A DNA stretch of 63,943 bases, filler included, from Folioceros fuciformis (taxonomy: Eukaryota), in the NCBI GenBank assembly GCA_049999805.1. It is 5 parts of 3 records of this genome, joined end to end, with 100 filler letters (N's around TTAATTAATTAA, not from the genome) between each part and the next. Parts side by side here need not be neighbours in the genome. Positions count along the whole stretch, not along the records: positions 41,110 to 62,226 come from JBNGIO010006184.1; 4 more parts are not named here. One strand, written 5' to 3'. Position 1 is the first letter of the stretch. Each line of letters starts with the position of its first letter. Under the pieces are notes generated by a model that had not been told where the DNA came from, ran no database searches, and was given only the letters and a program-made list of their open reading frames with translations. Positions 15,456 through 62,326 of this stretch are shown piece by piece. The translations under genes and the position numbers were made by a program.

Positions 15456-15555
15456 NNNNNNNNNNNNNNNNNNNNNNNNNNNNNNNNNNNNNNNNNNNNT
15501 TAATTAATTAANNNNNNNNNNNNNNNNNNNNNNNNNNNNNNNNNNNNNNNNNNNN
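15456..15555. other. Assembly gap with artificial TTAATTAATTAA spacer (same at 33892-33991, 41010-41109, 62227-62326; plain N gaps at 302-401, 52370-52379, 60403-60502)
   Basis: An identical all-frame-stop linker is centred in 100-nt N blocks. Confidence 0.95.
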
Positions 15556-37400: not shown

Positions 37401-39915
37401 GACTTAAACTGCTTGCCATGAATGCAAGCGAAACATAGATCAAGATCTGGTAAGTCAGACTCTGTAAAACCTGTAACCATCTTCTCCTTCAAAAGACGTC
37501 GCATTGCTTGAATATTGGGGTGACCTAACCTACAATGCCATCTGAAAGCAACCTGAGTTCTACTGACTGGAAACTTAGATACTTGAGCTGTTTGTTGTGG
37601 CAGGTCTAAGACAAAATCCAAGAGATATAGGTCATATAAGGGGGTACCTCTAGCAATAATTTCTGAAGGGGCACTCAACTTGGTAATTGCACACTCTAGT
37701 CCTTCAAACAAAATACTATACTGACCAATCTCACCTAAGACCATGGTGCTAACCAAATTTTTCTTGAGTGCTGGGACATGTAGAACATTCTCTAACTCCC
37801 ATGTTTTCCCATTGTACAGAGTCATAATAATAGATCCCATTCCCTTAATGGGTATATGTGAATTGTCCCCTAAGACGACTGCATGCTGGAGAGAAGATAC
37901 AACATACTTGACAAAGTTATTTCTAGAAGAGCACATATGATTTGACGCACCACTTTCTAGAAACCACTGATTCCTACCCTTCGAAACAGAAGATAAACAG
38001 GTAACCAGCAGTCCTGGTGTAGCAGCTCTTGTAACATTTGATTCATGTTGCTTGCCCTTTCCAGCGTCATCTTTTTGTTTCTTTCTGCAGTCTCTAACCC
38101 AATGACCTGGCTTGTGGTAGTAATTGCACACACCAGGTTTCTTGCTGGGCTGCGATGGATTGAAGCTGGAAGACTCGTAGTTGGACGCGTGTCCTCTACC
38201 TCTTCAAAAGCTTCCACGTCCTCGCCCCCTGAATATTGCGGCCTGTAAAAAGAGCTGTATCGCTCTGTTTATGGGTAGAGGTTGAACCTCCTTTGCTCAT
38301 ATGCTTTCTGTTGGCCTCTGCTTGTAAGAGAGCGCCAACAAGCTTCTGAACTGTGAGGTTTGTTACTGCAGGTGTGGTTGCTGTTGCTGGAGTGACAGTG
38401 GCAGCAGCTTGAATACTTGAGCTCCAAATTTCGTAACTTGGAGGGAGGCGTATCAGAAACTAAACAGCTGCCCTCCCTTTAGATAAGATCACTCCACAAG
38501 CTGCTAACTTGGCTCTTACAGCTCTGAACCTGGCCACATGACTCTCAACTGAGTCAGTTTCTTTCATGCGCAGGTTTTGAAAATGACTTATTGCTGCTGC
38601 CTCCGAGATGACATCCTTAGACTCGTAAGTGTCATTCAGCAAAGACCAAACCTCATGTGAGAATTTAGTCAATTTGATATGTGGTATCATCGTCTGAGAG
38701 ACTGATCCCACTAGAATTGTCCTTGCTTTGCGATCCTTGGAGAGCCAATCAAGCTCATCCTTGGCTGTCCACAGCTTCTTATTAACTCCTCCAGGAGTCA
38801 GTGTGCCAGAGTCTTGACCAGCAACACGCCGTGGAATCGAGCCATCAGCAACATCCATAAGCAATTTCTCCTCCAGAATACACCTCACCCGAAAAGACCA
38901 CGCATCAAAATTATTAGGGGTGAATCTGTCTTTTTCTTGTAAGCGGTCAGAATACTGATTTGCCGCCATGATGCCTGTGATGAGGAGAACTACATAGTAG
39001 GGGTTCTCAGGAAAGTCATCTTCTCCCTGAGTTCGTCAATCTCTGACCTATGACTTTTGATTTCTAATTCTGCCCCTACTGCAGCGACGCACTTTGACTC
39101 CCGCAATTTCTCCAGGCTATCAAGGCGGTTTGATAAAATGTCTACTCTTCGTGAACTTTCCAAGACGTAAGACTTGACATTAAAGAGAGAATTGAAGAGA
39201 GAGTCAAATTGTTTCAGATCTTGTGAACTGTAGGGTTTACAGGATCTACACTTTACATATTGTTGTTTCAGTGAGTTGTAATTTGCTAGGCAGCAGGAGG
39301 TGTCTAATCTGTCCACATTTCTGAATTGCGCACGTGAATTGGAGCCAGAATGTTCTGAATAATAAGAATCAGTAAATGCTTTCAAGAAACGCACCCGCTC
39401 TTCCTGTTGACTGGCGAAGATTTGTTTCTTGAAATACAGTTGTTCAAATTCTTCTCCAAAACTTTCCAATTCAGAAGTAGATTGATGCCGAGCCTTGCTA
39501 TTCCTAGCAGAGACTGGCCACACCTGCCTGCAAACGCCCTTCCGAGGCATCTCGCCTCCACCGCATCAAACCGCGCACATATTGTTCAATTGCCATAAAA
39601 ATATATTTTTTTTTTGTTAAAGAATCAAGAACTGAAAAAACATGTTTTTGGCAATAATGTAAGACGATTTCAAATAGCCATCAGGATGAGCAAGGCAGGA
39701 AAATTGCCTTGCTCTGATACCATGAAAACATTGTAGTGCATGGATCAAACCACACGCATGCACACACAAAAGAGTTAGTTATTTAAGAATAAGGTCCACT
39801 ATAGATATGTCCTCAGACACTAGTAGTTGTAACTGCTACAATAACCCTAACTACCTAAGGTACAACCCTAAGAGTATAGGCAATGTACTAACAACTAATA
39901 TCTACTTGTTTAACA
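34436..39915 (-). mobile_element. Ty1/copia LTR retrotransposon, degenerate (extra 5' ORF, gag, CCHC, PR, INT, RT, RNaseH)
   Basis: 5' LTR 39723-39915 (TG...CA), PBS 39711-39722, gag from 38969, CNYYHKPGHWVRDC, WFLESGASNHM, WHCRLGH, YGLKQ, LYVDD, LSSTEAEY, RTKHIE. The 3' LTR was not found. Confidence 0.92.
38990..39550 (-). CDS. Accessory 186-aa ORF between PBS and gag of the copia element; C-terminus probably coiled coil
   Basis: Open ATG-to-stop ORF ending 20 nt before the gag ATG; heptad-like ILSNRLDSLEKL...EIDELREKM. Confidence 0.55.
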   Translation of the reverse strand: MPRKGVCRQVWPVSARNSKARHQSTSELESFGEEFEQLYFKKQIFASQQEERVRFLKAFTDSYYSEHSGSNSRAQFRNVDRLDTSCCLANYNSLKQQYVKCRSCKPYSSQDLKQFDSLFNSLFNVKSYVLESSRRVDILSNRLDSLEKLRESKCVAAVGAELEIKSHRSEIDELREKMTFLRTPTM

Positions 39916-40727
39916 AATGTGGCAACATTGCAACAGCTGGATGTCTTGGGGCACTACAGAAAAGGTGCCTGAGATAGCATTGGCAGGAAGTAGTGAAGGG
40001 AATCGCTACTGTAGGTCCTAAAGGCGGAAAGCAGCAATGCATTACGCCTTGGGACAATGGTCACAATAAATGTAACGACTGACCAAGATGCCATTTAGCA
40101 AAAGGGCCTCCAGACCTGTGCAAATGCCCCCAAACAGTTCCAGCAAACTAATTCCAGAAGTGGGCGCCGTCCACGTGATGATCTGCTGGCTCATCGTGGT
40201 GGAAGATGCGTGTCCGCCCAAGGGGGAGTGTTGAAGTTGTAGAGCTTGCTGAACCAGGTCAGACACTTCAAATGATGGTGGAGTGTCTCCTAGGCAAGCT
40301 GCTGTGACCAAATGGTTGGCCTTAGGATCTGAATCCAAGTCGACAAGCTCCTACATGTCACTCAAATGCTAGCTGTCGGCGGGGAGCACCTCGGGGACAG
40401 CCTGAATGGTCGCCATAAGAACTGGAGTAGCTAGGACAGTGGGGACCTCGGTGTCCAATCCGCCATGCAGATTCAAGGGAAAGTGCGCCACTTGCTGACC
40501 TTCACTACGCCAATTGGGGTGATAATGAGCTTGGTCTGTCCAATTGTCCACGATGATGTCGGGTGGAAACAAAAACTCCTGTCGAAGAAGGACATCGTAG
40601 TTGGCGGCTGTCGTGATAAGGCAATGAATGGCCAATGTCATAGTAGCGGCTGTCTCGGGCTTGAGTGTGATGGCTAGTGGCTAAACCGTCTCTCCACACA
40701 TAGGTTCCACCGCGCCAAAGGCTGTCC
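39916..40727 (-). pseudogene. Gypsy-like retrotransposon fragment: protease C-terminus plus N-terminal half of a C5 DNA methyltransferase, cut by the copia insertion
   Basis: ANYDVLLRQEFLFP...DNW, then GISLLELFGGICTGLEALL.NG...YIYCD...RFPSLLP...VPQDI; collinear with 47050-48560. Confidence 0.75.
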
Positions 40728-41009
40728 CGCAACCAAAATGTACTGATTCTGCCGAACTCGAGTCTTTGGCTGGATCGGTCCCACAAAATCGATTCCCCAC
40801 TTCTCGAAGGGTGCCAAAGCCAAAATCGGCACCAACGGCCATTGCGTCGTCGGGGTAGGCTTCCCCACCCGCTGGCAGGCATCACATTTTTTTACGTACT
40901 GTGCTGTATCTCGGTACATTGTGGGCCACCAGTATCCTGCCTCTAGGATCTTCCTGCAAGTAATATGCGCTGCGAAATGGCCACCTGCCTCCCCGTCGTG
41001 CAGGCCCCT
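40728..41009 (-). mobile_element. Ty3/gypsy integrase fragment
   Basis: GHFAA..T.RKILEAGYWWPTMYRD...VKKCDACQR, PFEKWGIDFVGPI, YILVA. Confidence 0.85.
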
Positions 41010-41109
41010 NNNNNNNNNNNNNNNNNNNNNNNNNNNNNNNNNNNNNNNNNNNNTTAATTAATTAANNNNNNNNNNNNNNNNNNNNNNNNNNNNNNNNNNN
41101 NNNNNNNNN

Positions 41110-43696: not shown

Positions 43697-46600
43697 TGTT
43701 AGAAAGCAAGCGCCCTAATAAGATTGTGCATGCATTAGTGTATCTAGTTGGTATAGGGATACATATTGAGTTGATGTCTATCTTTATCAAGGTATTGCCA
43801 TGCATGAAGTCTATAAATGTAATCATTGGCTACCTATTCTAATGTACAGTCCTAAAGGTACTCAATGTATTGGATCAGAGTTGATCCTTGATTTCCTTTT
43901 TTTTTAACATGGTATTTGTGCAAGGGGAGTTAAGTTTTTGGTGCTATGTGACGCGGTAGTTCAACCTAGGTTTTTTGGGAATAGCCAATCTCAGGTGAAG
44001 CCAATCACCATGCGCACTAAGTGACTGTGTAGCCTATAGATGCTATAGGAGACTTCGTAGATAAAAAGTGCTTGAGCTAGGCTCTTGTGAGTGTGGCCAA
44101 AAGGAGCGCAAGGCACTGCCAAATTGAGTGCAAGAAGTTGCCGAGATAATTGCAGATAGCAGCAATGGTTGTGGGAAGTGGCACCAAACATAGGAAGCAT
44201 TGGGTAAGGAATGCAAGGAGGATTCGACAACATTTCTCAATTTTTTGGAGAGAAGCTAGACAACAAGAATTTTGCCTTGTGGAAGTTCAAGATGAAAATT
44301 TCTTTTGGTAGGCATAGGGTATTAGGACCTTTGTATATGTGATGAGATAAAACCTAAAATAAGTAGAAATCCATCACAAGAGCAATGGAGAGCTCATAAG
44401 CAATAGATAGAGGGAGCATGCAAAGTGTTATGTTCGTTCTCACTGAGCATTTCAAATGCTATGGTCATCTAGATCATGGAATGTAAGATGCCGAAAGGAT
44501 GCATGGGATATACTCATGAAGAACTAGGGGAATGTCACACATGGAAGGAACATTCATTTGAAGCAACACTTCAACAATGCGTGATGAGGTAGCAGAAGCA
44601 TACTTGTGTTCACAACTAAGGTGAAGACTTTAATAGATCAACTTGATACGATGGATTTAGAAGTGATGGAGGATGACATGATTGATGTGACATTGAATGG
44701 TCGTGATAAAATATATAGGTCCTTTGATACGTCAATTTCTGTGAGAGCTAAACCTCCAAGTTGGAATGAATTGGTAGCATTGTTGCTACACAAGGAAGTT
44801 AAGCTTGGTTTGAACTCTAGTTCTAACGTGTCTCAGGGTAGAGACATTGTTTTATTCTCTAACCAACATGGTAGAGGCAACCAAGGTCGTGGTTCATTTC
44901 GAGGTAGGGGTAATACTTGGAGTACTCATGAACAGAACCAACAAAGCAATTGGCGTGATGCAAACACACAAGCCTAGAGTGGAGTTGGAAACCTCAGGGG
45001 CAAGCGGAGAACCACAAGAAGCGAAGATGGCTCTTGGCAATCACATTACCAGTCTAATAAGGATAAAGAATGCTATTATTGCGGCAAATTTGGGCATATA
45101 GTGAAAGATTGTTATAAGAAACAAGTCATGTGACACATCATTAGTGAATGAGGACATGGCCATCTGCAACTTTATAGCTGAGGCATAAACGGAAGAAGGC
45201 ACAGGCTGGAACCTTGGAAACATGCATGACTAACAAGTCCCAGATACGACACTAGCACCTCAATCCATACCCAATCCAAAAACCCCTACTTAACGAATGG
45301 ATAAATGAGGTTGAATCCCACAAACCCAATTAACCGGCTAAGTAACTATAATTTATCCTTGTAATCATAAAACATCGATTACAAGAGGTAGAACATGCAA
45401 GTTAGCATACAGTTAGGCTTAGGCTCTTAACCTACACCCTTGCGAGCTACTTGTACTGATCTCAAGCCTTTCCAAGACAATCTATCTTTGAGAGCAAGAG
45501 ACTCCTACGCACTATGGCTAATGATTTGCTGGTGCATGCTATGACCAAGGATGTGTAGCGTATAAGAACCAATGATCCGATGCTAGGCTGGAACACCTGA
45601 GATCTGGAATGCCGGTGTGTAACAAGTAGACTCTAAAGGAAGAGAAAGACAACATGGACATTTTGCATCTTCTAGTGGTACTCAAAAGAATCAGGAGGAT
45701 AGGTTGTTTGTTGTACAACGTCTATCAAACTTGCACTTGACAAGCAAAATGATGAGAGATAATATATTGATTCAAGAACGTTTAATCACATGACTCCACA
45801 TGGTGAGTGGTTTGGCAAAATGAATGTAGGTACCCATAATCATGTGTGCACAGGAGATGGTACACAACATAACATAAGGCATAAAGGAATTGTTCCCCTT
45901 AAGATGCCAAATGGTCAGAAGAAAAGTTTGCAAGATGTGTTACATGTTCCAACTCTTACGAAAAATTGGTGAACTCTAACTTGTTGATATATACCGCAAC
46001 AAAATGGTGTTGCAGAGAGGAAAAATAGGGTGCTAATGGAATCAGAAAGGGCAATGCTGAATGAAAAATGTTGACCTACTACGTATTGGGCCAAAGTTAT
46101 TATGACTGCAGTGTAAGTGTTGAATCAAACTCCCACAGCTGAGATTCATGATGCTACACCATATGAGAGGTTGTATGGATATAAACCAGACATTCGACAC
46201 TTGAAAGTTTTTGGTTGCATTGCATTTGTGTATGTACCTAATGAAAAGCATAAGACGCTAGATCCTAAAGTGATTAAGCTTGTGTTTTTGGGGTATGCAC
46301 AAGGAAGGAAGGCATACAAGTGCTATGTGTCGTCTACACATGAAACCCTTATTAACAGGGATGTAGTGTTTTATGAGTTAGCCTCATGGTGTGGCAACTC
46401 AATTGTTGTGTGTACTTACAAACCGATAATCGAAAGTACTGTTGAGAGTACTCTTGCAAAGGTTACTAATGTAGTACCAATTGTAAGTCCATGGTATGGT
46501 AGGTTACGGAGTCTCCATCCAAAGTCCATTGACACGGATATGTGAGTGAGGGGGAGAGTAGACAATGAAGAAGGGAAGGAAGGTTGAAGCTGAAGATGTG

Positions 46601-47045
46601 GAATATAAATTGTCAAGCAATGACAATCTTAATAGTGAACTTGGAATTCCATCTATGGTAACGCTAAGTGCTAAAGAGCTTTGTTACGTACCACCTCATG
46701 AGTGGCAAGTTCAAAGTGAACCAAAATGGAGAAGATCGGGGAGGGTTAGAAAACCCATTGACAAATATAACTCTACAAGTTATAATATGCATTATTACAT
46801 GTACATGACAAGAGTTGCGGATTGTAAGGAACTGACCACATTTGCTGAGGCACTGATAGACGAAAAGTGGTTTCATGCCATGGATGAAGAATACTCAGCA
46901 CTAGTTGAGAATGGAACATGGGATTTCGTGCAGCTGCCAGTTGGTAAAGTCTCAATTGGTTCAAAATGAGTTCATAAGCTGAAGGTCAAAGTAGATGGAT
47001 TGCTGGAGCGTTTCAAGGCCAAGTTGGTTGCTAAGGGATATGCAC
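43697..47045 (+). mobile_element. Degenerate Ty1/copia (5' LTR 43697-43909, decayed PBS, gag, PR, partial INT, RT start)
   Basis: TGTTAG...TAACA then TGGTAT; KNFALWKFKM, CYYCGKFGHIVKDC, PQQNGVAERKNR, LKVFGC, AMDEEY.AL..NGTW, FKAKLVAKGY. Confidence 0.85.
45129..45624. mobile_element. Probable solo LTR (~496 bp) inserted just after the gag zinc knuckle
   Basis: Termini TGTGACACA...TGTGTAACA; imperfect flanking duplication AGTCA/AGTAG. Confidence 0.45.
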
Positions 47046-47049
47046 ACTC

Positions 47050-47850
47050 CTCAACTGTAGGCTCCTCCTGATGGCTCGTGCGAGTGTTCAATAGCAAACT
47101 TGCGCCATTGCCATGATAAGCAAAGAAGCCAAGCATGCTCACTAGAGTGGGCAAGGTGTTCCGAGGTTGTCCAAGAACATTGGTGGAATACCAAGGAGGT
47201 TTCTCTGGACCATGGATAGGGCGAGCCTCATGATCCTCATTCAATACATCTGACAAGCTCAATGTGGGATCAAAGCAAGGTCCAATAATTACGCAAGCAC
47301 TAGGCATAGCTCCCAACCTATGCAGCATCCATGAGAAAAGGGTGCCCAATGTGGTGTTGAATGATCATCATGTCCTGCTGCACTTGATCTTGCTCCAAGT
47401 GCGCAGGGGTGTTCTAAAGCAGGTAGGCACAATTGGGATAACATTGTTGTAGCCATACCAACAATTGGTGCAATTCCCAAAACAGTCCACTACGCGTGTC
47501 CTATAGACTAGCCCCTGCACCTGCCTATGAGAAGCCTTGACACTCCCATCGTGTGACAAGGATGTGCACCATGCCCAAGGCCTAAATATGGCCATGTTGT
47601 ATGTAGCATACATCCTGGGGTACAGCAAAGAAAGCACTGTGAAAGGTTGTCTAAGGCAATTGAATGGGACAACAAACACGCAGCTCTTGTAGGCAATGGG
47701 CTGCCATTGCATGTGCCTCAGGACTGCTGTCACAATACACGTAGTATTGAATGTGCAATCCAACAATGAGCACGGCCTCAAGTCCGATGCATAAGCCTCC
47801 CAAGAGCGCTAACATGGTGACTCCCTTAGTAGGGATTGTCTAATCTACCA
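47050..47850 (-). pseudogene. Retrotransposon-encoded C5 cytosine DNA methyltransferase domain (motifs I-VIII in one frame with nonsense codons; target-recognition domain and start of motif IX in a shifted frame)
   Basis: Manual translation: MLALLGGLCIGLEAVL..G...YVYCD...VPQDV...ILVTRWECQGFS*AG...DTRSGLFWEL...AYLL*N...MDAA*VGSYA*CLRNYWT, then LPTLVS...EEPTVEE. Confidence 0.8.
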
Positions 47851-48739
47851 CATGCTATTACACCATTTGTCCAGACTGCGGATGTAACAAACCTATCTCC
47901 ACCAGTGTGTTGACTTGCAACAGTTGATGACGGGCAGTTTGTAGCTGGTCATCGATTGTGGCCGGGTGATCAGCACTGTGCACAACATTCTATGCAATGC
48001 AGAAAATAGCATGCATTGTAGAGCAACTCAGCACCTCCTCACTCTCAATCTTCAGTGTGGACTCAAGATGGTCCTCATCTCGTAGTGGATCAAGTGGGAT
48101 TGTCATGCAAGCTAGCTCCATGTTGTCAAAGCAGGCTTGTCACATGACCCTGGTAGCGATGTCAACCTTTGCATTCCCATGAAGCCTAAGTGGAAGGAAA
48201 GCCACCTTCTTGCCACCGTCTAGACTGGGTGTCTAGTCTAGACGATAGTATGCTTGCTCAGTCCAATTATCAATGGTAACGCAAGGGGGAAACAAGAATT
48301 CTTGGCCCAATAAGACATCATAATTTGTGGCAGGGATGACCAAATAGGGGACACTAAGAGTCATGGCATCCTCCATCCATGGATTAAGGGTGATGTTGAC
48401 AGGGTGCACTATTTCCCCCATGACTGGCTCAATGGCTCCAAATGTTGTCCGAACATTCCAAGGAGAACTTTGCAACGTAGGCCCATGAAGCTAAAGTCTA
48501 GCAACCAAGGCTTTGCCTATGATGACAGGTTGTGCCCCCTGTGTCAAGCAGCACAACCCTTGGAGCATAACCATTAATGGTAACTACCCGGTGCCATTGT
48601 CGACAAGCGCATTGTTGACCCTCTCCGTGAGACGATTGGTACGCTGCACTCATGGCATGTCCTAAGAGATTGTTGAGGGCACCCAGCCACCAAAGTTCTT
48701 GTATCCCCCCCCCCCATTGTGAGCCAAGCCAGGGGTAAT

Positions 48740-49018
48740 GCCAGCAGCCATCATATTTGGCTCTGCCATAAGATGGGGCTGCCAGGTCATGGCTAAATGC
48801 CAACAGCCATCATATTTGGCTCTGCCATAAGATGGGGCCGCTAAGCCATGGCTAAATGCCAGCAGCCATCATATCCGGCTCTGCCATTAGATGGGGCTGC
48901 TAGGCCATGGCTGAATGCCAGCAGCCATCATATCTGGCTCTGCCATAAGATGGGGCCGCCAAGCCATGGCTAAATGCCAGCAGCCATCATATCCAGCTCT
49001 GCCATAAGATGGGGCTGC
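48740..49018. repeat. 59-bp tandem repeat, ~4.7 copies, between gag and protease of the DNMT element
   Basis: Repeated GCCAGCAGCCATCATATYYGGCTCTGCCATAAGATGGGGCYGCYAAGCCATGGCTAAAT. Confidence 0.9.
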
Positions 49019-51289
49019 GGATAACTGGCGTACAACACTATTGGATGCTGCAAATCCATGACCAAGGTTTCAAGCCCAATGCCCATGTTGCGAAGGGTAA
49101 ACAATGGCATGCTAGTGAGCTTAACAACTAGCTCCTCAATTGCTAGGGTCATGGGCAGCAAGTAGATAGAATACTGACCTACCTTGAGGGACTTGGCACC
49201 CGGTGACCTTCCCATGCTTGGCTGTTCTCCAGCTGCAACAAAAGGCTCTTGTTCTTGCATGGGGATGGCCATGCCTGGAGGCAACGGAGTGAAGGACTTG
49301 GGCATTACAACCTGTGCTCCCCGCTGCCATGTGAGTGGTCCAGGGATGCTAACAGCTTCACATTGTGCGCGGGCTTCACACATCTAACATCGCCCCAACA
49401 TCCACCACAATAGTAATTGCAACGATTCTCCTACCTACTCGCTCCATGAAATCTAATCGCTTGGGCCTCCCAATTTCATATAGCCAGCTAGTCATGGTGC
49501 ATAAGCTAAAATCACTTCACGTCAACACCTCGAGTGAGCAGCTAAGGTCATCAAGAAAGTCTCCTTGCTATCCACAATGCTCAATTGTGAAGCCAATGTC
49601 CACCGTAACAGCACTTGCAGCGATCCTCCTTCTTGCTCGCTCTAGAGAAATCCTCCTCCCCATGGATGGAGCAATGCTGCCTATGGCTTCTTATCCTCCG
49701 ATGCAAGAAGCCTACTATTACCGTGCCATCCCTTCCTGATGTCTATCTAGCTTGAGCCCCACTTGAACTCCTTGCCGAATCGAAACGAGATCAGTGTATC
49801 GGTGTCATTGAAAGGTTTGCAAGCCAGATTGATTGGAAGCACTTTGCTATATCAAGAGAATTTGTGTCTCGCCCCGCCTGCGTATCTCGCATCGCTGCCC
49901 CGTCGCTCATCTTTGGTCCCAAACTGAACCAAGGTGACAAATCTCCATGAGTGTAAGCCCTCTCCTAAGCATGCTACTCCCTCTTGTGGTAGCCATGAGC
50001 TCCACTACGGGTCTTGCAATCTCGAAATTGTCATCCCTCTCTCGATCGCTTAGCTCTAATACCATATGTAAAGAAACATTGGTCTCGCTAACAAGCCCAT
50101 AGCCATAAAGGAAAACAAGGAACCCCTCAGTTCAGCAAGCAGTCCCTTCTTGTAGCCTATGCCATGGGTCCTAGTTTGGGTTCTTGACCCTGGTTAGTTG
50201 ACTAGCTACTTGAGTTAGTTACTAACTAGAGTTCATTTAACTTGAGTTACTTCACCCGTAGGCCTAACCCTAACTATTTATCTGGTTCTCTTCTAAACTC
50301 TAGGCATGCTCTAAGCTGATATACTTGTAGCCATTGTTCGTATCCTAGCAATTGCATCTAGGCACTCATGAGGTGCCCCATCCTAGTTCTCATAAAGCTA
50401 CTATCAACTCGTTAGCTCACAACTATGGTTGGCCGTGACAGTGACAGATCAACCACAGTATCCTCTAAGTTGGCGTGTGAAACATGTTCAAACGTTCGGA
50501 TGAATGACTCTACATCCACATCCTTGCATTTGTCTCCAAATTTGATGTACGTGGAATCCACATGGTGACTGGATCCCTTGGGAAAAGTCAGTCGGCTCTG
50601 GGCAGGCAGGTGGCTTCCAGGATCAATCAAGCAAGCGGGCGCTGTCGGGATGGCAGGCCAGTCGACTCTGAGTAGGCAGGCGGGCGGATGCAAGCATGTG
50701 GCTGGCTGGCTGCCAGGCAGGCAAGCGGGTGGCAGCGCATCCAGGTAGTAGGGTGGCTGGACCGGATCAGCGGGCAGGCGGCTGGCAGGATCAAGGCAGG
50801 TTGGCAGGCTGCTGGCTGGCTGGCTGGATCGGCCAGGCGGTGGTGTTGATCAAGAAGGCTGAGTTGCGGTTGCGCAGGCAGGCGGACTGGATGGCAAGGA
50901 GGCAAGTAGGCGGCTGGCAGGCATCCGGCGGTGGCACAGACGGGCGGCAAGCTGGCTGATAAGGAAGGCTGGACCGTGGCAAGCAGGTCAGCAAGTAGGC
51001 TGGCTGATCAGGAAGGCTGAATCGCGATAAGCAGGTCAGCAGGCAGGTTGGTTGATCATAAAGGTTGGATCGTAGCAACAGCGATCTAGCCTTCCTCGAA
51101 TGGCGGCTGCAGCAGCTGCGTGTGTTTGCGGGGTGTCGGCTTTTGACCTCCGGAGCTGGGATGGTACGAATGCTGGTGCACAGGAGGGAAAGGAGAGGAT
51201 GTTCCTGCAGGAGCGAAAGACCATGGACAGTGGTGTGGATAGCAACGAGGGGAAGAACTCGGACAGTTCGTGTGAGAGTGGATATTTCC

Positions 51290-51585
51290 CCAGTGACCAG
51301 ATGAAGTTCATACACCTGCTGAATGTGGAGGTGAAAAAGTCCAGCAAGTTCTTCATCAAAAAGGAGGAGTATGTGATTCGTCTGTAGGATGTGAAGAGAA
51401 GGATAGAGATGAAGGAGGCGGCTCAGGCCAAGCCGCAGCTGTCGATGGATCATCAAAGCAAAATGAAGACCAGCTTCAGGCAGATGATTACGTTTCATGG
51501 AGAGATGGTGTTGCTAGAGATATACAGCTCGCTCAATTACGCTAGCCTGGTGAAGATCTTGAAGAAGCATGATAAGTGCAGGCGA
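51290..51585 (+). pseudogene. Captured SPX-domain gene fragment (SPX1-4 type phosphate sensor), intronless
   Basis: FIHLLNVEVKK..KFFIKKEEYVIRL*...[28 protein letters not shown] in a single frame. Confidence 0.8.
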
Positions 51586-52291
51586 GGAGAGTAGGTGGCA
51601 GGGCCTAGAAGCAACCGGCTAGAGCTGGTGGACGGACCTGGATGGGCGGGTGCATAGTTCTCTGGTTGGGGTTGAAGGTATTCCCGAATTCGAGCCTGGC
51701 CGATGCACATCAAGTTGGAAACGGAGAAGTCGGAGATCAGGTTCCATCCAAGGCCAGGTTTCAGCCTACAAGACGAATGCCAATTTGGCCACTTCGCCAA
51801 ACTCGGATGATCCGATTAATCAGCAGCAACGCAGCATGAAGTGTGCAATTTGAGGCGTGTGCGCATGTGCGGAAAGGAGGTAGGCATGGCAAATCGGGGA
51901 CAGTGGGAAGCATGTTTTTTGGGTCAATTCTTTCAAGTTCCAACACGGTGGTGGAATAACAGGCATGCTAAGAGAAGTAAGCGTTTGCTTGACGTTTGGC
52001 AAAGAGAATTCCAGGAGGGGCTCGAGCTGCACCACCTCTACAAGTCAGCCTGGGTGAAGTCGAAGCTTGCTGCTTGGGATGTGGATATGGGTCGTGAGGT
52101 CTCGAAGCCCAAATCTAGCTTGCCTGCTGGGACAATCTCAAGGCGGATGCTCTTGGCCAGTGTAGCCAACACGATGGGGGCTGGAGGCCTTGAAGAAGGT
52201 GCAGGATGATTTGAGGGAGAAGGTGGAGTAATTGCAAGGGAAGTGGCTGCAGACTGGTTCCAAAAGGCCAGCTTGGCAGTTTCTCATAGGC

Positions 52292-54696: not shown

Positions 54697-54850
54697 TGCT
54701 ACAAGAAAAGATGCTAGTGCACAAGTTGCATAAAATGACAATTAATTAAACTCAACCAAAAAAAAGGTATTATATACAAAGTGTCTTTTCATAACTATGG
54801 TTAATTAACCCTAAGGTAGGTTATACTAAAATAACCCCTTATTATTAACA
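54697..54850 (-). repeat. 3' LTR of the full-length copia
   Basis: TG...CA, near-identical to 61021-61174, adjacent to PPT TAAGTGGGAG. Confidence 0.95.
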
Positions 54851-55454
54851 CTCCCACTTAACCTACTCTTAGGTTAAAGGTAGAATCCCTCTCAGGTTAA
54901 AAGTAAAAAAAACTTAACCACTAGGAAAACTTTATAACGGAACGGTGTCACGCAACGGAACGGAACAGAAAAACCCCAGAGAACGTGCAGCGGGAAATTA
55001 AAGCCGCATAAACTTGCACATGCGAAAACCAACTCACGAAATCCCCACGGCGATTCGCACACGCGCGGCCGCTACACGAGAACGGACCACGACGAGAACA
55101 CACGCGCGACACATAACACAGAGCACGAAGCCAGCTTGTGATCCGCGAGTCCTCTACAAGACATCGCGATGCCGCCGCGAGGCGCCCGTCCAGCAATCCG
55201 GCGCGGGACTTGTCCTGCTGCCTCGCAAGCGCGGGGCGATCCCGCTGCTGGTTCAGCACGGGCTGATGAAATGCCAGAAGGCTCACAACCCAGCCATCCA
55301 GAGATTGAGGAACGACGCAGGCTGACCCCGTCCTCGTTCTTGCTCTGATCTCGATCTAATCACCTTTGCTTTCGGTCTTGGCAGGTCTCGCGGAGTGCTG
55401 TTGGTTCACGCTCACCATCTCATCACGTTCAGGCTCAGCACCTGCAGGGCTTCC

Positions 55455-55694
55455 ATGGCGCGGACTAAGCAGAAAAGAGGCACCAAGGCCAGCCCGCTGT
55501 GGAGGAAGAGTGTGAGGAGACCATCAACACTGAAGCATCGAGTGAGAAGTGGTGGCCGACGCAGGCGGACCGAAACTAGATTGTTCACTTGCTCCAAACC
55601 TCACAGAAGTGTGAGGAAATTGAGAACCTCCTCAAATCAGCCAGGCTGCGTGTCTTGGAGCAACTGGATGTGCAACTCCAGCATGAAACTGTGA
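55455..55694 (+). CDS. Putative antisense accessory ORF in the copia 3' region, starting MARTKQ (may be frameshifted or spliced)
   Basis: ATG in CCATGG context after a TGCAG acceptor-like site; GTGAGT donor-like site at ~55691. Confidence 0.4.
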   Translation: MARTKQKRGTKASPLWRKSVRRPSTLKHRVRSGGRRRRTETRLFTCSKPHRSVRKLRTSSNQPGCVSWSNWMCNSSMKL

Positions 55695-55901
55695 GTTCAA
55701 AAAAAAAACCACCAACACCTGCTGTCCTCTACGTTTTTCCTTTCCAAGTTCATTGTTTTTTTTTTTCTTTCCTTTTTTTTTTTTTGCCAACAACACTAAT
55801 CAGGCTTTAACTGAGTAGAAAGTCTGGCTTAGCACTTGTAGGCTCATAGTTCTCCTCCTCTTTTTTTGTGTGATCTCACTGCTGAGCTTACAGCACAGGT
55901 C

Positions 55902-58900
55902 TTAGACAGTTTTTCTAGTGACTGTAAATGCACGCAGCCCACATGCTGCACTATGTTTATAATGTTTGATCTTTGGTAGTCCTTTTGTTAGGAGATCAGC
56001 TGTGTTATCTTCAGTGTTCACATATTCAACTTTAACCAGTCCTCTCTCAGCCACATCTCTTATATAGTGATGGTATAATTCGATGTGCTTTGTTCGAGCA
56101 TGAAACCGGGGGTTGGACACAAGGGCAATAGCAGACATGTTGTCACATTTCAGCTGAGTTGATCCAACTTGTGTTTGTTGTACAGAATCAAGGAATTGGC
56201 GCTCCCACTCAGCTTCTTTACATGCATCTGTTAAGGCCTTGTATTCAGCCTCAGTGGAGGACAAAGCTAACGATGTTTGCTTTTTGCAGCTCCAGCTGAC
56301 AACACCTGAAGCCAAGATAAAGCAGTATGCTGAAAGGCTCCTTCTAGTGTCAGAATCAGCTGCCCAATCAGCATCAGCAAAAGAGGTCAGTATAAATTTA
56401 TTGTGTCCACTAGCTGTATAGTGAAGTCCCCAATTTAGTGTGCCTCTTAAATACCGATAAATTCTCTTAACCGCTGACCAGTGAGTTCTCCCAAGTGCCT
56501 TCAACAACTGGGAAACAATGCTAACAGCATAGGAAATATCTGGACGGGTCCAGTTAGCAAGGAAAATCAGGCAACCAACGGTTTCAGCATATGGAACAGC
56601 AGCCATATCAGTAAGTTCTTCAGAACTTTGAGGAGATTGCTCTGCTGTCAATTTTTCTCCCACTGCTGAAGGCGTAGTGACTGGTCTTGCTTCAGCTAAA
56701 TTAAACCGTTTGAGTATTTCCATTATATATTTGGTCTGATGTAAGATTACCACTCCCTTGTCACGATGTCTCAGAATTTGAATACCCAAGCAATATTGCA
56801 GCTCACCTTGGTCAGTCATCTCAAACTCTGCCCTCAGCATGTCTTTGACTTTAGATAGTAAAGTCATATTGTTAGTAACAAGGATGGCATCATCCACATA
56901 CAGGGCTAATATAACAAACTTGCTGTCTTCTGAAAAGAAGAAAACATTGGAGTCTGCAGGTAGTCACTGTACAAAGCCAAGCTTCTGAAGATATTTCACA
57001 ATTCGTTTGTACCAAGCTCGAGGACTTTTCTTTAATCCATAAATAGTTTTAAGTAGCTTACATACTTTATTTGGATATTTCTTACCAACAAACCCCTCTG
57101 GCTGTTGCATGTACAGGGTTTCTTCAAGCTCTCCATCAAGAAAAGCGGTACACACGTCCATTTGGTGAACTTCCAAGTTATATTCAGCTGCCATAGCAAG
57201 GAGAATTCTAACAGATGGGGGTTTAACAACAGGTGAGAAGGTATCACCATAATCCAAACCAGGTATTTGACTAAACCCTCTCGCTACAAGTCTTGATTTG
57301 TAACGTGCAACTGTGCCATCTGATTTGAGCTTTGTTTTAAAAACCCATTTACAGCTGATTGGCTTACGCCCAGGTGGCAACTCCTCTAACACCCATGTGT
57401 TGTTTTTGACTAAGGAATTAAATTCATCATCAATGGAGATTCGCCACTTATCACCATCAGGGCCATTGATAGCCTCTGAATAGGATTGGGGGTCAGGTCT
57501 CATGTCAGGTACATATATTTCAGCAATATGGGCCTGTCCGAAATTAACTGATTCATATGGTTTCTCTAACCAATTCTCACGTGTACGCCTCTCTCTCATA
57601 GGATAACGAGGTTGATCCTGGATTTGGGCTTGTGGAACTTAAGGTAAGACCTCTCGCACAATTTCAGCTGTACTGTGTGTAGAATGTTGAGAGGCTACTG
57701 ACCCTTCATCCTCAAAAGGATCATCAACTCCTTCAACTTGTGGTAAATTCTCCTCAAAGGCTTCATGAACATCTGTATTTTCAGCAACCACTTCCTCCCC
57801 ATCAGATAAAGGAAATTCAGCAAACTGATTAGGCTCAAGGTCACCCTCAGCATCTTCATCTTGTATTTGATTAAAATGCTGTTGTATATTTGAGCCATCT
57901 TCTGAATAAGACAGGTCTTCATGAGCATCTTCTACAGATGTTGAAGCTTCAGGACGTGGTGAAGACAACTCTTCAAATGTCACACTCCTAGCTAAGGTAA
58001 TAGTTGAAGTATTGGAGTCAAATAATTTATATGCCTTAGATTCTTCAGAATAGCCTAGGAAAATTAGAGCCTTTGCCCTATCATCTAACTTCCTGCGTTT
58101 CTGTTGAGGAATAAGGGCAAATGCAGGGGAACCAAAAACTCTTAGGTGAAGCAAGCTTGGTTTTCTTCCCCAGAATGATTCATAGGGAGTTTTATCAGGC
58201 ACAGACTTTGTCAACACTCTATTTAGAATGTAAGTTGTTGTGACTATGGCCTCAGCCCAGAAACGCTTTGAAAGTCCTACCCATGAAAGCATGCTTCGAG
58301 TCATTCCCATAAGTGTTTGGTTCTTGCGTTCTGCCACACCATTTTGCTGTTGCGTATATGGTATGGAAAATTGCCTTGTGATTCCAAATTGATCAAATAG
58401 GGAGTCATATTTGTGACCTACAAATTCACCTCCATTATCTGATCTCATACACTTGACTAACTTTCCAGTTTGCCTTTGTACCATAGGTATCCAGGATGAT
58501 ATCTTGTCAAAAGCATCACTTTTCTATTTAAGAGGAAAGGTCCAAGTGTACCTACTGAAATCATCAGTCAAGGTTAAGTAGTACTCCGCTCCTCCTAGCG
58601 AAGGTACCTGTATCTTCCCAGCAATGTCCATGTGAATCAATCCTAGAACGCAATCAGCTCTTGTAGCATTTTTGTTCTTGAAAGGAAGCTCCTTTTGTTT
58701 AGAGAGTACACATGACTTGCAGACTGGAAGGTGCTTAAAGCATGAAGGTAACTTTTCTTTATAATAGTCACCTGTGGACATTAAGTCTAGCTTGACCTTA
58801 TTTACATGTCCAAGTCTAGCATGCCATAGATTTGCTAGAGACTTAGATGTAGCAACATTCACAGCTGGACTATGATCTCCCACTGAAAGCTGATAGAGAT

Positions 58901-60284
58901 CATTCTTAAGTAACCCTCTAGCTAAACACACACTAGGTTGTGTTATGCTATACAAACAGCAGGAGTCCTTAACAAAGCAAAAAGCAAACTCTGACATTTG
59001 TGTAAGTGCTCTAATTGACAACAGGTTCTTTGACTTGTCAGGAACATAAAGTACATCCAGCAATTCAAGAGTGAATTCACTAGAGATAGGTACACTTACT
59101 GTTCCACTTCCTAGTACCTTCACAGCACGTGAATCTCCCACATACACTGACTATGGGAATGACTGTCTAATGAAGGTAGTGAACAGGTGGTGATTGTTAC
59201 ACACATGTGAGGTCGCCCCTGAGTCAATGAACCAAAGAGAGGGATGCTCTCTTGTTGAAGTCAAGCAGACGGTCAACACTGTTGAGCTGCTCTTTTGAGC
59301 ACTTTGGGTACTAGAAGATTTGTTGCCTCTTTCAGCAACATGAGCTTCAAGTTTTGGCTCCTTGCGAGCTTCTCCTGATTTCTTCTTACGGCACTCTCTT
59401 TCCCAGTGGCCAGGGAGCTGACACCAATTACAGTTGCCTTGCCTTTTGGGATTTCCAGGTGGGGTTTTCTTACCCTTACCCTTCCCCTTCCCAAAAGGCT
59501 TCTTCATTGCAACTAACACTTTCTCTGTTCTAACCTTTGTAGAACCAGAAGGCCGATGGCGAGTCTGCTCCTCTTGATGGAGAGCTCCCACTAGCTCATT
59601 GAAAGTGAGGGTGCCAGCACCACCTGCTTTAACTGCGGCAACAGAGGTGCGCAAGGCTACATTCTGTGTGGACACAAAGTTTGGATAGGAGGAAGGAAGA
59701 CTGGACAACAATTGTGCAACTGTGTCTATATCAGATACAGTTCCACCAAGCTGAACAATTTGTTGTCTCAAGTAGCGGAAGCGGGTAATGTGAGCACTCA
59801 TTGTATCTCCCTCCTTCATTCTTAGTCCATAGAATTCATTCCTAGCAGCAACAAGAGTCAATATATTCCTTACTTGATATGTATCATGTAGTTGTGTCCA
59901 GACATCTGCTGCAGTTGGTAGAAACTCCACCTCCATAACTGTGGCCTCATCAAGGCCTGAAAGTAGCATAGCAAATGCCAATTTGTTACCCTTTTTCCAT
60001 TTATCAATTTCAGTTTGTTGTGCTGCAGGGCCAGGTTGTTCAAAGGTGCCATCCACAAATTCCAGAACATCATGGGCATCAAGAAGGGCCTTCATTCTGG
60101 CACGCCAACTCTCAAATCGCTGTGGCTTGCCATCAAAGCGGTCCTTTTCTTTGAAGTCACCAGAGAATGCAGACGTTGTAGCAGAAGACATGTTTGCTGA
60201 CCCACTAAGTAAGCTAGAAGCAGCCAATTGTGAAATAAGCTGATCTAAAGCAGACATGTGCAGACAAAGTGGAAAAAGGAGCAA
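55902..60284 (-). pseudogene. Copia gag-pol polyprotein, single frame with four premature stops
   Basis: Gag, CNWCQLPGHWEREC, WFIDSGATSH, LWHARLGH, RSDNGGEF, QQNGVAERKN, RLVARGFSQ, LYVDD, ADWAAD, LSSTEAEY, RTKHIE; stops at 59151, 58524, 57639 and 56964. Confidence 0.95.
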
Positions 60285-60502
60285 ATATGAAGAGGCCTTG
60301 CACTACAAACACATGAAGAGGCATGTGAGGTAAGCAAAAGACCCATTCAATGTGAAAAGCTACCCTAATTTAATTAAAAATAGAATTAAATTAAATTAAA
60401 GGNNNNNNNNNNNNNNNNNNNNNNNNNNNNNNNNNNNNNNNNNNNNNNNNNNNNNNNNNNNNNNNNNNNNNNNNNNNNNNNNNNNNNNNNNNNNNNNNNN
60501 NN

Positions 60503-60880
60503 TGATTAGAAGTAGACTGTGCAGGTGCAATTTGAAATTCATACAATCTATTAACTGTTGCAGAAAAATCTTGCAAAATTAACAGCAAAAATTCCAAACG
60601 ATCCTCCAAAGCCTCAATTCTTTTAGGTACTTGATCAAGCCAAACCAGCCTGTTGTTCATTTGTTGGAGAAGACGCCTCTGAATATCTCCAGCACCTGAA
60701 TTAACCCTCTCAGCAGCAATTCTGTGGGAATTGTGTTGTGCAGGATGCAAGCGAGGAGGTGGGCACCTACTTTGTAGAGTAGAATGTAGGTGATTGTAGT
60801 GGGGATTGCTGCTCTCTCTACAATCTTTGGCCTTGTGAAGGCCTGAAGCTAGAAGAACAATAGCTTCCCCTTCTCCTCGT
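60503..60880 (-). CDS. Putative accessory coiled-coil ORF between PBS and gag of the full-length copia; runs into gap
   Basis: Open frame ...IQRRLLQQMNNRLVWLDQVPKRIEALEDRLEFLL...; same position as ORF 38990-39550. Confidence 0.4.
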
Positions 60881-61020
60881 CATCCTGCACAAAATTCACT
60901 AGCATAAATGCATTTTAACACTCTAAGTAGCACTCTATGCTAGACAATAGAAGTAGAGACAATCTTCTTCTACAATTAGCCATAGGACTACTAGATAAAA
61001 ATGCATGGGCTCTGATACCA

Positions 61021-61174
61021 TGCTAGAAGAAAAGATGCTAGTGCACAAGTTGCATAAAATGACAATTAATTAAACTCAACCAAAAAAAAGGTATTATATA
61101 CAAAGTGTCTTTTCATAACTATGGTTAATTAACCCTAAGGTAGGTTATACTAAAATAACCCCTTATTATTAACA
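61021..61174 (-). repeat. 5' LTR of the full-length copia
   Basis: Directly abuts the iMet PBS; matches 54697-54850. Confidence 0.95.
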
Positions 61175-62326
61175 CCAATAGACTTGCCTTGTCAAGGAAA
61201 GCAATTTGGTATAAAAATTAACAGCAACTAACCTATAACGCAGGCAATATGTGCCCTAAACTTTAAGGTTGAAATCCCCAAACTTGCAGGGTGAGCGTTG
61301 TTGTAGCTGCCACACTGCTGCGGCTGGCAAGATGTGGTGACGCTGCCCTGCTATAGGTGCGTGGATGCCTCCTCCAAGCTTAGCCGCACTCGGATCTTGC
61401 ATGCAATTGTTGAAGTGACAAGCAACGATGCTCACTTGCACCTTGCTGATTTTTCGAAAGAGCTGCTTGCATCAAGCAGCTATGAGTTAGGTAAGTCATG
61501 CACATAGCTCCACATGCACTACCTATCCCCATCTTGAGCACATCGATTGACAACACAACGAGATTTCTTTGACAAGAATAGGGTTCAGACAAAAGGTGTG
61601 TGTAAGAGTAGCTCTCCTTGTGCGAGACTTCAACAATTGCCCCTACAGCTACCATCTCCTGGTTTTCTTCGTCGCTATTGCCATCAGAAGCGCTACCTAC
61701 CCAAGTTGTCTTCTTCATGATCACAACCACTTCTCACACCAGCTGCATCTGTTTCCCCATGAGATGCAATTGGGCCTTCTATTTGCATTGGCAGTTGGGT
61801 GGTAAATGACCTAATGAACTAGCATTAAGGCTGGTATTTCTAGATGGATCTAACTGGCCTATATAACTAATATTAAAACTAGTATTTCTATGCTGTAATC
61901 ATTGTAGTGGTTTCTTAAATAACTTAGCATATGTAAATAACAACTCTAGTTACCCTCACATCAAGCTTACATGCATTGTAGTAGCCTGTCGCATACCAAT
62001 CAAGTGTGGTATTATAACACCTATGTGTAACATGATCTATGACAACTCATCACTTCATGTAGCCCATGTTTGCAATAGTGAAATGTGGTATTGTTGTAGG
62101 TACCATAACATATAGTTAAAATTGGTTTGCAATTATAATATGCAAGTGGTGGTTTAGTATTTAGGGTTTAAGGCCGAGCCTTAAGGTTTAGACTCACATG
62201 CACATAAGCACAATTTTCATGAGGATNNNNNNNNNNNNNNNNNNNNNNNNNNNNNNNNNNNNNNNNNNNNTTAATTAATTAANNNNNNNNNNNNNNNNNN
62301 NNNNNNNNNNNNNNNNNNNNNNNNNN

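Follow-up and report, generated by a model that had tools for sequence, protein, structure and literature searches.

Retrotransposons with captured DNA methyltransferases (DNMTs) are stated to occur in Symbiodinium and Klebsormidium (PMC5890265), as the earlier note on this locus had said. In the charophyte Klebsormidium nitens, KnitGypsy-Dnmt3 is described as a Gypsy-type retrotransposon with a DNMT3-like domain (de Mendoza 2018, PMC5890265); it produced no methylation in yeast, a result that its authors called inconclusive. SymbioDIRS-Dnmt3 of the dinoflagellate Symbiodinium belongs, in the same account, to the DIRS elements and has a tyrosine recombinase; its authors regard the acquisition as independent, and its de novo CG methylation was demonstrated in yeast (PMC5890265). 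In the searchable literature, descriptions of DNMT-bearing retrotransposons were found only for dinoflagellates and one charophyte alga. A retrotransposon with its own DNA methyltransferase reverses the usual picture, in which the host silences the transposon.

The stretch analyzed here, 63,943 nucleotides in total (the window), comes from Folioceros fuciformis. Its assignment to a land plant is borne out by a PPR protein of the PLS class encoded within the window, whose named matches were all embryophytes. Positions 47047 to 48604 on the minus strand (the first copy) are very probably what remains, truncated and long inactive, of a member of a Ty3/gypsy-type retrotransposon family in which a DNMT3-like C5-methyltransferase directly follows the protease.

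Methyltransferase domain of the first copy

The C5-methyltransferase motif strings that had been proposed were all read as claimed. The minus-strand frame from 47839 contains, in canonical order and interrupted by stops, LALLGGLCIGLE, YVYCD, PQDV, WECQGFS, DTRSGLF, YLLxN, and DAAxVGSYAxCLRNYWT. WECQ is located at 47548 to 47537 and retains the catalytic Cys, and the Glu position of motif VI is a stop codon. A family profile built from 15 gag-protease-DNMT proteins matched the minus strand at 48547 to 47252 (E = 5.4e-84) and at 47268 to 47047 (E = 7e-12). The DNMT3-like domain with motifs I to VIII spans 47249 to 47830 on the same strand (DNMT profile positions 2 to 197 of 326, E = 1.5e-51). 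It is followed in a shifted frame, at 47047 to 47265, by a TRD-like region that reaches the first residues of motif IX (positions 207 to 279 of 326, E = 1.3e-11), consistent with the target-recognition stretch read there before; the string EEPTVEE ends at 47047. The profile match ends at position 279, and the remainder of motif IX and motif X are missing.

A phmmer search with the window peptide against 1.84 billion representatives gave 578 matches at E ≤ 1e-3 and 276 at E ≤ 1e-10, with a best E value of 2.4e-37. Chance occurrence of the motifs was ruled out by these 578 matches and by the E value of the family profile. The closest database sequences were only 41 to 44% identical to the window peptide, and thus no close intact copy is known. 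In the suggested comparison with PF00145, the window peptide scored 14.9 bits (E = 0.018), below the gathering cut-off of 22 bits. Relatives of it pass, namely, P0007 (45.5 bits), ORF1 of locus L001 (51.1 bits), P0005 (42.7 bits), and P0166 and P0167 of Marchantia (28.9 and 28.1 bits). No match was obtained with phmmer against PDB. Because of the subthreshold PF00145 score and the lack of a PDB match, the identity of the window peptide as a DNMT is one of transitive homology. A homologous-protein search with the window peptide among longer proteins scored 0 of 1,159 candidates.

Against solved structures, the family profile matched DNMT3A, DNMT3C, and DNMT3B chains at E values of 7e-17 to 3e-14, compared with 6e-8 to 1e-4 for DRM chains and 2e-6 to 1e-4 for HaeIII and HhaI. 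Judged by these profile scores, the domain is DNMT3-like, nearer to DNMT3 than to DRM or HaeIII/HhaI. The motif order of the family's DNMT domain is unrearranged.

Linkage to a retrotransposon protease

A decayed retropepsin-type aspartic protease is located at 48242 to 48604 on the minus strand, as had been noticed; the protease (PR) profile matched 48547 to 48242 (E = 8.9e-22), and the tblastn alignment with P0007 begins at 48604. The linker to the DNMT (47831 to 48241, minus strand; about 350 bp in the relative L001) is collinear with the linkers of gag-PR-DNMT proteins within a single HSP that includes the flanking domains. Protease, linker, and DNMT form one collinear unit with P0007 and P0160 to P0165, at 31 to 32% identity over 431 to 486 residues. 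In the phylogeny, the window DNMT falls inside a clade of 37 rows (SH-like support, 96) that holds all 24 type A (PR-DNMT) sequences, 11 unassigned sequences, and 1 type B sequence. This placement, the collinearity, and the single gag-PR-DNMT open reading frame of L001 support the claim that the DNMT is borne by a retrotransposon.

A second, more truncated and decayed relic is located at 39928 to 40991 on the minus strand (family profile, E = 3e-50). It comprises an integrase H2C2 piece (40991 to 40704; PF17921, E = 2.8e-13), the C-terminal half of the protease (40749 to 40510), and, after the linker, DNMT motifs I to III (40161 to 39928), the last two from domain profile matches. It is 34% identical to the first copy over 284 residues and contains 6 stops in 274 codons. 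The DNMT-bearing kind is therefore represented in this one land-plant genome by at least two ancient remnants.

The DNMT stretch could instead be a pseudogene of a host DNMT3 that happens to adjoin a retrotransposon protease. Host DNMT3 genes are reported in non-angiosperm land plants (PMC6453930, PMC9516144), and the family is DNMT3-like. However, the PR-linker-DNMT order is collinear with at least 24 proteins of the same architecture and recurs in the second relic, the DNMT clusters with sequences borne by transposable elements, and Pfam scans of 13 relatives over their whole length detected neither a PWWP nor an ADD domain. A host pseudogene is thus extremely improbable and close to refuted.

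Decay and truncation

Over 290 codons, the methyltransferase frame of the first copy is interrupted by 11 stops (7 TAG, 4 TGA, and no TAA), in agreement with the nonsense codons described before, and the domain has a frameshift. A longer count in this copy gave 15 stops in 433 codons. It holds no open reading frame able to encode the enzyme. The CpG observed/expected ratio of the copy was 0.31, with a TpG+CpA ratio of 1.56, compared with CpG ratios of 0.65 to 0.69 in two host genes. At the start of motif IX, around 47047, the copy is cut against an antisense Copia reverse transcriptase (RT) fragment that ends around 47050. The alignments of relatives all end at 47047, save a few that reach 47017 to 47023. 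Because of the stops, the frameshift, and this cut, the copy has no present function; it is long dead and methylates nothing.

The Copia fragment (46910 to 47050, plus strand) lies tail to tail with the DNMT fragment and matches the RVT_2 profile (PF07727) at positions 1 to 46 of 244 only, with an E value of 1.1e-5 and 25.6 bits against a Pfam cut-off of 31.6. A Copia integrase SH3-like domain is located upstream of it, at 46117 to 46545. Capture of the DNMT by Copia was rejected, since the abutting Copia sequence is on the other strand and is itself truncated.

No RT, RNase H (RH), or integrase (INT) was found downstream of the first copy, in line with the earlier remark that no RT is visible. 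This can be attributed to the cut inside the DNMT rather than to a family-wide absence. A lineage of nonautonomous gag-PR-DNMT elements, never equipped with RT or integrase and dependent on autonomous relatives, would also lack these domains. Many database proteins do stop after the DNMT (15 of the gag-PR-DNMT type), and RT is absent from the window for the second relic as well. In L001 and L004, however, such proteins are ORF1, and an ORF2 encoding RT-RH-INT-PHD begins 13 bases later. Moreover, both window copies are cut within the DNMT (the first at profile position 279 and the second at 79 of 326), and truncation explains the missing RT. A nonautonomous lineage is therefore very unlikely.

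Region upstream of the protease

An LTR-like repeat of the form TGTCAC...TTTACA, read directly from the sequence, is located at 50067 to 50440 on the minus strand. The LTR proposed at this position is thus present as a TG...CA repeat-like sequence, but it is single, with no second copy within the window. Two bases past it, at 50053 to 50064 on the same strand, the 12-mer TGGTATTAGAGC differs at one position from the iMet PBS motif, which we take as the yardstick. The proposed iMet-type PBS was accordingly found with one mismatch, and its tie to the DNMT element is unproven. An Rfam scan of the whole window gave no matches. Compared with the structural definition of an LTR retrotransposon (two LTRs, PBS, PPT, and TSD), the locus has one LTR-like repeat and a one-mismatch PBS-like site, and its 3' end is absent.

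The stretch between the PBS-like site and the protease (48605 to 50052, minus strand) occupies the place expected for gag and is unrecognizable; it includes a tandem array of five 59-bp units at 48723 to 49018. The gag remnants described in the earlier note were not recovered. Over 48605 to 50066, Pfam found no family in three frames, the family profile had no match, and a tblastn comparison with 175 family proteins and four Copia gag-region peptides of the window gave eight weak matches, the best with an E value of 0.002 over 21 residues.

The locus may quite possibly be a composite, in which an unrelated LTR element, such as a Copia-type remnant, contributed the LTR-like repeat, the PBS, and the adjoining 1.45 kb, and the PR-DNMT fragment is truncated at both ends. 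The absence of gag homology is consistent with this reading, as is the repeat-to-protease interval of about 1.45 kb, less than half of the expected length (about 3.4 kb in the relative L019). The PBS-like 12-mer occurs four times in the window against 0.32 expected, and the other three sites adjoin Copia elements. In the relatives, no iMet PBS comes after the 5' repeats; these repeats gave no convincing alignment with the window repeat, which they resemble in the first 7 bases only. The window is, in addition, a patchwork of truncated and nested transposable elements. However, repeat, PBS, and protease share a strand and stand in the correct order, and those 7 bases, TGTCA(C/T)G, open the repeats of the relatives and of the window alike. 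Similarity to Copia gag is likewise absent from the interval, and an internal gag deletion with expansion of the tandem repeats would explain the anatomy equally well. The upstream repeat and PBS are thus no more than candidate parts of the DNMT element.

Intact relatives

In intact relatives, ORF1 encodes gag with CCHC knuckles, protease, and DNMT, and ORF2 encodes RT, RNase H, integrase, and a PHD finger. In L001, ORF1 (1006 to 5085) has weak protease matches in addition to its PF00145 match, and ORF2 (5098 to 8229) matches RVT_1, RNase H, Integrase_H2C2, rve, and PHD. The DNMT was upstream of RT-RH-INT-PHD in all seven loci scanned, and the protease was upstream of the DNMT in six of them. 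The gypsy assignment therefore holds through the domain order of these relatives, from which that of the first copy is inferred, and not on the gag, protease, and PBS basis first given for it. Type B relatives carry the DNMT between RNase H and integrase, an arrangement seen in 81 of the best 150 matches.

A repeat pair 8.4 to 9.8 kb apart was found in five of eight long relatives and none in the other three; three of the five (L019, L023, and L064) have B-A-B at the 3' end, i.e., split direct repeats of the A-coding-B-A-B type. PCQ, ENV, HRxR, and ERERAMGF were invariant in all 15 sequences aligned, and ECQ replaces the PC-containing loop in about half of the family. The dN/dS ratio between the DNMTs of L001 and L002 was 0.13 at a dS of 0.26, indicating purifying selection in the relatives. 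A still-open DNMT domain was present in 7 of 68 environmental full-length copies. At the DNA level, comparison of the window with 80 relative loci gave only two matches, 75% identical over about 100 bp, both in the protease.

Occurrence in land plants and proposed role

No description of land-plant copies was found in the literature, and the earlier note knew of none, although such copies may be listed in supplementary figures of PMC5890265 and PMC12344493. Sequences are nevertheless already in NCBI, where two "hypothetical" proteins of Marchantia polymorpha (P0166 and P0167; loci MARPO_0204s0011 and MARPO_0020s0163) have a gag-PR-DNMT-type architecture. The family is new to the land-plant literature but not to the databases. 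We tentatively propose that land plants, at least those of bryophyte grade and the plant of the window, harbor an undescribed, partly intact Gypsy-DNMT3 lineage with gag-PR-DNMT and RT-RH-INT-PHD reading frames and split direct repeats, about half of whose members have Glu where the catalytic Pro-Cys loop almost universally has Pro. Since this lineage is related to the larger RT-RH-DNMT-INT-PHD group, the methyltransferase would have moved within the polyprotein or been captured twice.

In live members, the DNMT would be made together with gag and protease, be carried in the particle, and then carry out de novo methylation of the newly made cDNA or of the site of insertion. The idea that the family methylates its own cDNA or insertions is thus kept for live members and does not apply to the first copy, which is dead. 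The PHD finger of the integrase may read histone tails for the choice of insertion site, like the chromodomains of chromoviruses. If active, such elements would provide land-plant genomes with de novo cytosine methylation by a transposon-encoded enzyme. The lead opens a test of whether, as plants moved onto land, these elements added to de novo methylation or took advantage of it.

Comparison with known systems

Chromoviruses are Ty3/gypsy elements with a chromodomain, a chromatin reader fused to the C terminus of the integrase. This fusion is also stated in a bioRxiv preprint (10.64898/2026.05.21.726589). In the relatives of the window element, by contrast, the reader is a PHD finger, and a DNMT is aboard. 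The best solved-structure matches of the family were the host enzymes DNMT3A and DNMT3B (chains such as 8te1_A and 6kda_A), in alignments that include motifs I, IV, VI, VIII, IX, and X. The family differs from them in being embedded in a retrotransposon polyprotein, in having no PWWP or ADD domain by Pfam in those 13 relatives, and in the ECQ loop of half of its members.

The type B polyproteins (RT-RNaseH-DNMT-INT-PHD; for example, P0008, P0010, and P0027) have a homologous DNMT, 36 to 43% identical to the window peptide, and share the modules for RT, RNase H, integrase, and the PHD finger. They differ in the place of the DNMT, which in the clade of the window copy follows the protease. SymbioDIRS-Dnmt3 shares with the window family a DNMT3-like domain borne by a transposable element and, as described, the A-coding-B-A-B repeats found in family relatives.

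With a DNMT within a retrotransposon polyprotein, the window element appears by its sequence to be of the KnitGypsy-Dnmt3 kind. According to the published description (PMC5890265), both have a nonrearranged DNMT3-like C5-methyltransferase in a Gypsy coding region and a streptophyte host. Key catalytic residues of KnitGypsy-Dnmt3 are reported to be conserved, with a Ka/Ks ratio below 0.2, compared with the dN/dS ratio of 0.13 in the relatives of the window element, and its repeats are given as the "same as DIRS" (A-coding-B-A-B), as in L019, L023, and L064. Relative to that description, the window family differs in its land-plant host and in the position of its clade's DNMT after the protease, in the gag reading frame, and the copy in the window is a dead fragment.

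The protease-methyltransferase relic

A minus-strand frame starting at 47839 contained the strings LALLGGLCIGLE, YVYCD, PQDV, WECQGFS, DTRSGLF, YLLxN and DAAxVGSYAxCLRNYWT in this order, with WECQ (motif IV) at 47548-47537, and the stretch continued in a second frame, terminating with EEPTVEE. The earlier note had claimed C5-methyltransferase motifs in canonical order in one frame, followed by a shifted-frame continuation, and both were found. The frame carried 11 in-frame stops in 290 codons (7 TAG, 4 TGA and 0 TAA); Pfam gave no matches in the other two frames of the region. With its stops read through, the peptide alone matched PF00145 below threshold (residues 99-127; E = 0.018; 14.9 bits, cut-off 22), and phmmer found 0 matches among PDB sequences, so the peptide is unconvincing by itself.

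The PF00145 check proposed earlier thus failed for the peptide alone, but homology to a family was strong. When stops were entered as X, phmmer against 1.84 billion representative proteins gave 578 proteins with E ≤ 1e-3, of which 276 reached E ≤ 1e-10 and 4 reached E ≤ 1e-30; the top match had an E value of 2.4e-37 and 41% identity. A family profile, made from an alignment (A1) of 15 proteins with the order gag, protease (PR) and DNA methyltransferase (DNMT), matched the window at 48547-47252 (E = 5.4e-84) and at 47268-47047 (E = 7e-12). Judged by sequence similarity, the motifs are more than a chance resemblance. The protease was also correctly placed ahead of the DNMT: in tblastn, the protease, linker and DNMT of the database protein P0007 aligned collinearly in one piece at 48604-47255 (31% identity over 486 residues; joint E = 1e-44), and the alignment carried on frame-shifted as far as 47047.

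The window copy is a fossil. From protease to DNMT, it had 15 stops in 433 codons, and one frameshift occurred near 47250-47265. Its CpG observed/expected ratio was 0.31 and that of TpG+CpA was 1.56, compared with CpG ratios of 0.65-0.69 in two host genes; this composition is consistent with deamination of methylated cytosines, as in other transposable elements (TEs) of the window. The DNMT profile match ended at position 279 of 326 (base 47047), and a plus-strand Copia element broke off at about 47050, after positions 1-46 of 244 of the RVT_2 profile. The integrase SH3-like domain of this Copia element lies at 46117-46545. These end points indicate that two 3'-truncated elements abut tail to tail, which accounts for the lack of a visible reverse transcriptase (RT) reported earlier.

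The upstream interval

Gag remnants had been claimed in 48605-50052, and this was not borne out. Pfam found nothing there in any frame at E ≤ 1, the family profile had no match, and BLAST yielded only 8 weak matches (best E = 0.002 over 21 residues). A tandem array (59 bp x5, 89% match) occupies 48723-49018, where gag was expected. An LTR-like repeat (TG...CA) follows at 50067-50440 on the minus strand, and the site at 50053-50064 differs by one mismatch from the iMet-type primer binding site (PBS) motif. The claimed LTR and PBS therefore exist as sequence features, but no second copy of the repeat was found within the window, and none of four relatives examined had an iMet-type PBS after its 5' repeat. 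The repeat resembled those of relatives in its first bases only. Four iMet-type PBS sites were present in the window versus 0.32 expected, and the other three adjoin Copia elements. The interval is also short, about 1.45 kb versus about 3.4 kb in L019, an environmental locus of a relative. The interval, the single repeat and the PBS observations, along with the lack of a convincing gag match, make it a serious possibility, if a little short of an even chance, that the repeat and PBS belong to another element than the PR-DNMT relic.

Other repeats of the window

A second copy lies on the same strand at 40991-39928 and comprises an integrase H2C2 piece (PF17921, E = 2.8e-13; 40991-40704, minus strand), then directly the C-terminal half of the protease (40749-40510, minus strand), the linker and DNMT motifs I-III. 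It shared 34% identity with the first copy over 284 residues, had 6 stops in 274 codons and terminated just above a Copia PBS at 39711-39722. The H2C2 fragment directly precedes and overlaps the protease half. None of the intact relatives shows this order, which indicates a rearranged or chimeric copy. It borders on the N runs of 41010-41109.

The PBS at 39711-39722 belongs to a Copia at 34617-39565. Another Copia, on the minus strand at 54697-61175, has long gag, integrase and RT/RNase H frames with a few stops between (55902-60302), 155-nt repeats that are 99% identical (54697-54851 and 61021-61175) and an exact iMet-type PBS at 61009-61020. GC-rich 19-bp and 48-bp tandem repeats were found at 50776-51078; just beyond them, open frames at 51076-51594 (plus strand) resemble fragments of an SPX-domain gene. 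At each of 15456-15555, 33892-33991, 41010-41109 and 62227-62326, two 44-base N runs stand 12 bases apart, and N runs of 100 bases occur at 302-401 and 60403-60502. The N runs are probably masked or gap stretches.

Layout of the relatives

Pfam was run on five long matches. Four (P0008, P0010, P0015 and P0027) were RVT_1-RNase H-[DNMT]-Integrase_H2C2/rve-PHD polyproteins, with PF00145 above the cut-off in two, below it in one and absent from one. The fifth, P0007 (1775 aa), gave only PF00145 and a weak aspartic protease match; its sequence order is CCHC knuckles, protease and DNMT. Among 10 short top matches, PF00145 passed the cut-off in 4, fell below it in 3 and was without a match in 3. A word search from P0007 recovered 28 proteins, 16 of which had the gag-PR-DNMT layout or opened with the DNMT ahead of RT. 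Two were NCBI Marchantia polymorpha proteins annotated as "hypothetical" (MARPO_0204s0011 and MARPO_0020s0163), which were gag-PR-DNMT by our own profiles (PF00145, 28-29 bits).

In 81 of the best 150 of the 578 phmmer matches, the DNMT stood between RNase H and integrase; 10 matches were of the PR-DNMT type, and the remaining 59 showed a DNMT alone. The same modules occurred in two layouts among database proteins P0004-P0178, gag-PR-DNMT(-RT-RH-INT-PHD) and (PR-)RT-RH-DNMT-INT-PHD; the methyltransferase module has either changed its place in the polyprotein or been acquired on two occasions. A FastTree tree built on 163 DNMT domains placed the window copy in a set of 37 rows (SH-like support, 96). 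Every one of the 24 PR-DNMT-type rows fell in this set, together with 11 unassigned ones and a single row of the other type.

Metagenome contigs yielded 600 candidate stretches, of which 311 were confirmed in the scan; 80 loci were retained. In L001, ORF1 (1006-5085; 1359 aa) encodes gag, protease and a DNMT (PF00145, 51 bits), and ORF2 (5098-8229; 1043 aa), starting 13 bases after ORF1, encodes RVT_1, RNase H, Integrase_H2C2, rve and PHD. L004 had the same layout, but with its gag-PR-DNMT part split over two frames. By our own domain profiles, the DNMT lay upstream of RT-RH-INT-PHD in all seven loci scanned, the protease lay upstream of the DNMT in six, and gag was detected in six. These results indicate a Ty3/gypsy order into which the methyltransferase was inserted behind the protease, in agreement with the earlier gypsy assignment and with the position after the protease whose absence the earlier note would have taken as a refutation.

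Direct repeats of about 300 nt (124 nt in L064), 8.4-9.8 kb apart, enclosed the coding region in 5 of 8 long loci; the other 3 had no flanking direct repeats. In three of the five, a second repeat flanked the 3' copy, giving the arrangement A-coding-B-A-B (L019, 6683-16007; L023, 6183-15837; L064, 6275-14941). These three have split direct repeats despite a DDE integrase, not a tyrosine recombinase.

Enzyme class and selection

The family profile matched DNMT3A, 3C and 3B chains best (E = 7e-17 to 3e-14), ahead of plant DRM (6e-8 to 1e-4) and of HaeIII and HhaI (2e-6 to 1e-4), and motifs I, IV, VI, VIII, IX and X aligned with the structure chains in unrearranged order. Catalytic residues were conserved, with PCQ, ENV, HRxR and ERERAMGF invariant in 15/15 sequences of A1. 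Across the 163 DNMT domains, motif IV read ECQ in 82, PCQ in 56 and other variants in 15, and was unmatched in 10; the window copy reads WECQ. About half of the TE-borne family thus has glutamate in place of the near-universal proline of the catalytic Pro-Cys loop.

A full-length, single-frame DNMT domain was present in 68 of the 80 loci and was free of stops in 7 of these. The dN/dS ratio was 0.13 for L001 versus L002 (dS, 0.26), the sole unsaturated pair among the 7 stop-free domains, and 0.11 for L001 versus L004 (dS, 1.4), indicating purifying selection on the domain in live or recently live members. In such members, the DNMT would be made together with gag and protease and may act on cDNA or a new insertion, and the PHD finger of the integrase could guide target choice.

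Host and known systems

Host genes in the window encode LHCB, plastid S10, an RPN3-like protein, a malectin-type receptor kinase and a 768-aa PLS-class PPR protein. Named matches to the PPR protein (28-43% identity) were all from land plants, namely, Calypogeia, Sphagnum, Diphasiastrum, Selaginella, Adiantum, Ceratopteris, Ginkgo (assigned by "Gb_" gene ids), Cryptomeria and one angiosperm, which supports the land-plant host claimed previously.

The literature search, which covered main texts, found no paper describing land-plant copies of Gypsy-DNMT3; supplements may hold such data. "Marchantia" does not occur in the text of de Mendoza 2018 (PMC5890265), nor "methyltransferase" in the main text of a plant LTR retrotransposon reference survey (PMC6317226). 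The earlier statement that no land-plant description is known agrees with the papers searched, but the two Marchantia gag-PR-DNMT proteins were already in NCBI. The find is of moderate significance, since the element in the window is a relic and members of the family from land plants are present, unnamed, in public databases.

The window feature is real, the core reading of it is correct, and it belongs to a known kind, the Gypsy-DNMT3 retrotransposons; a 2026 preprint names "streptophytes (Gypsy-DNMT3)" (10.64898/2026.05.21.726589). TE-borne DNMTs were reported in Symbiodinium and Klebsormidium nitens (PMC5890265). According to that article, SymbioDIRS-Dnmt3 domains performed de novo CG methylation in yeast; KnitGypsy-Dnmt3 gave no methylation there, a result its authors considered inconclusive. 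The A-coding-B-A-B arrangement was described for DIRS elements and, in the legend of Fig. 4c, also for KnitGypsy-Dnmt3 (PMC5890265). In these repeats, the relatives L019, L023 and L064 resemble KnitGypsy-Dnmt3 of K. nitens.
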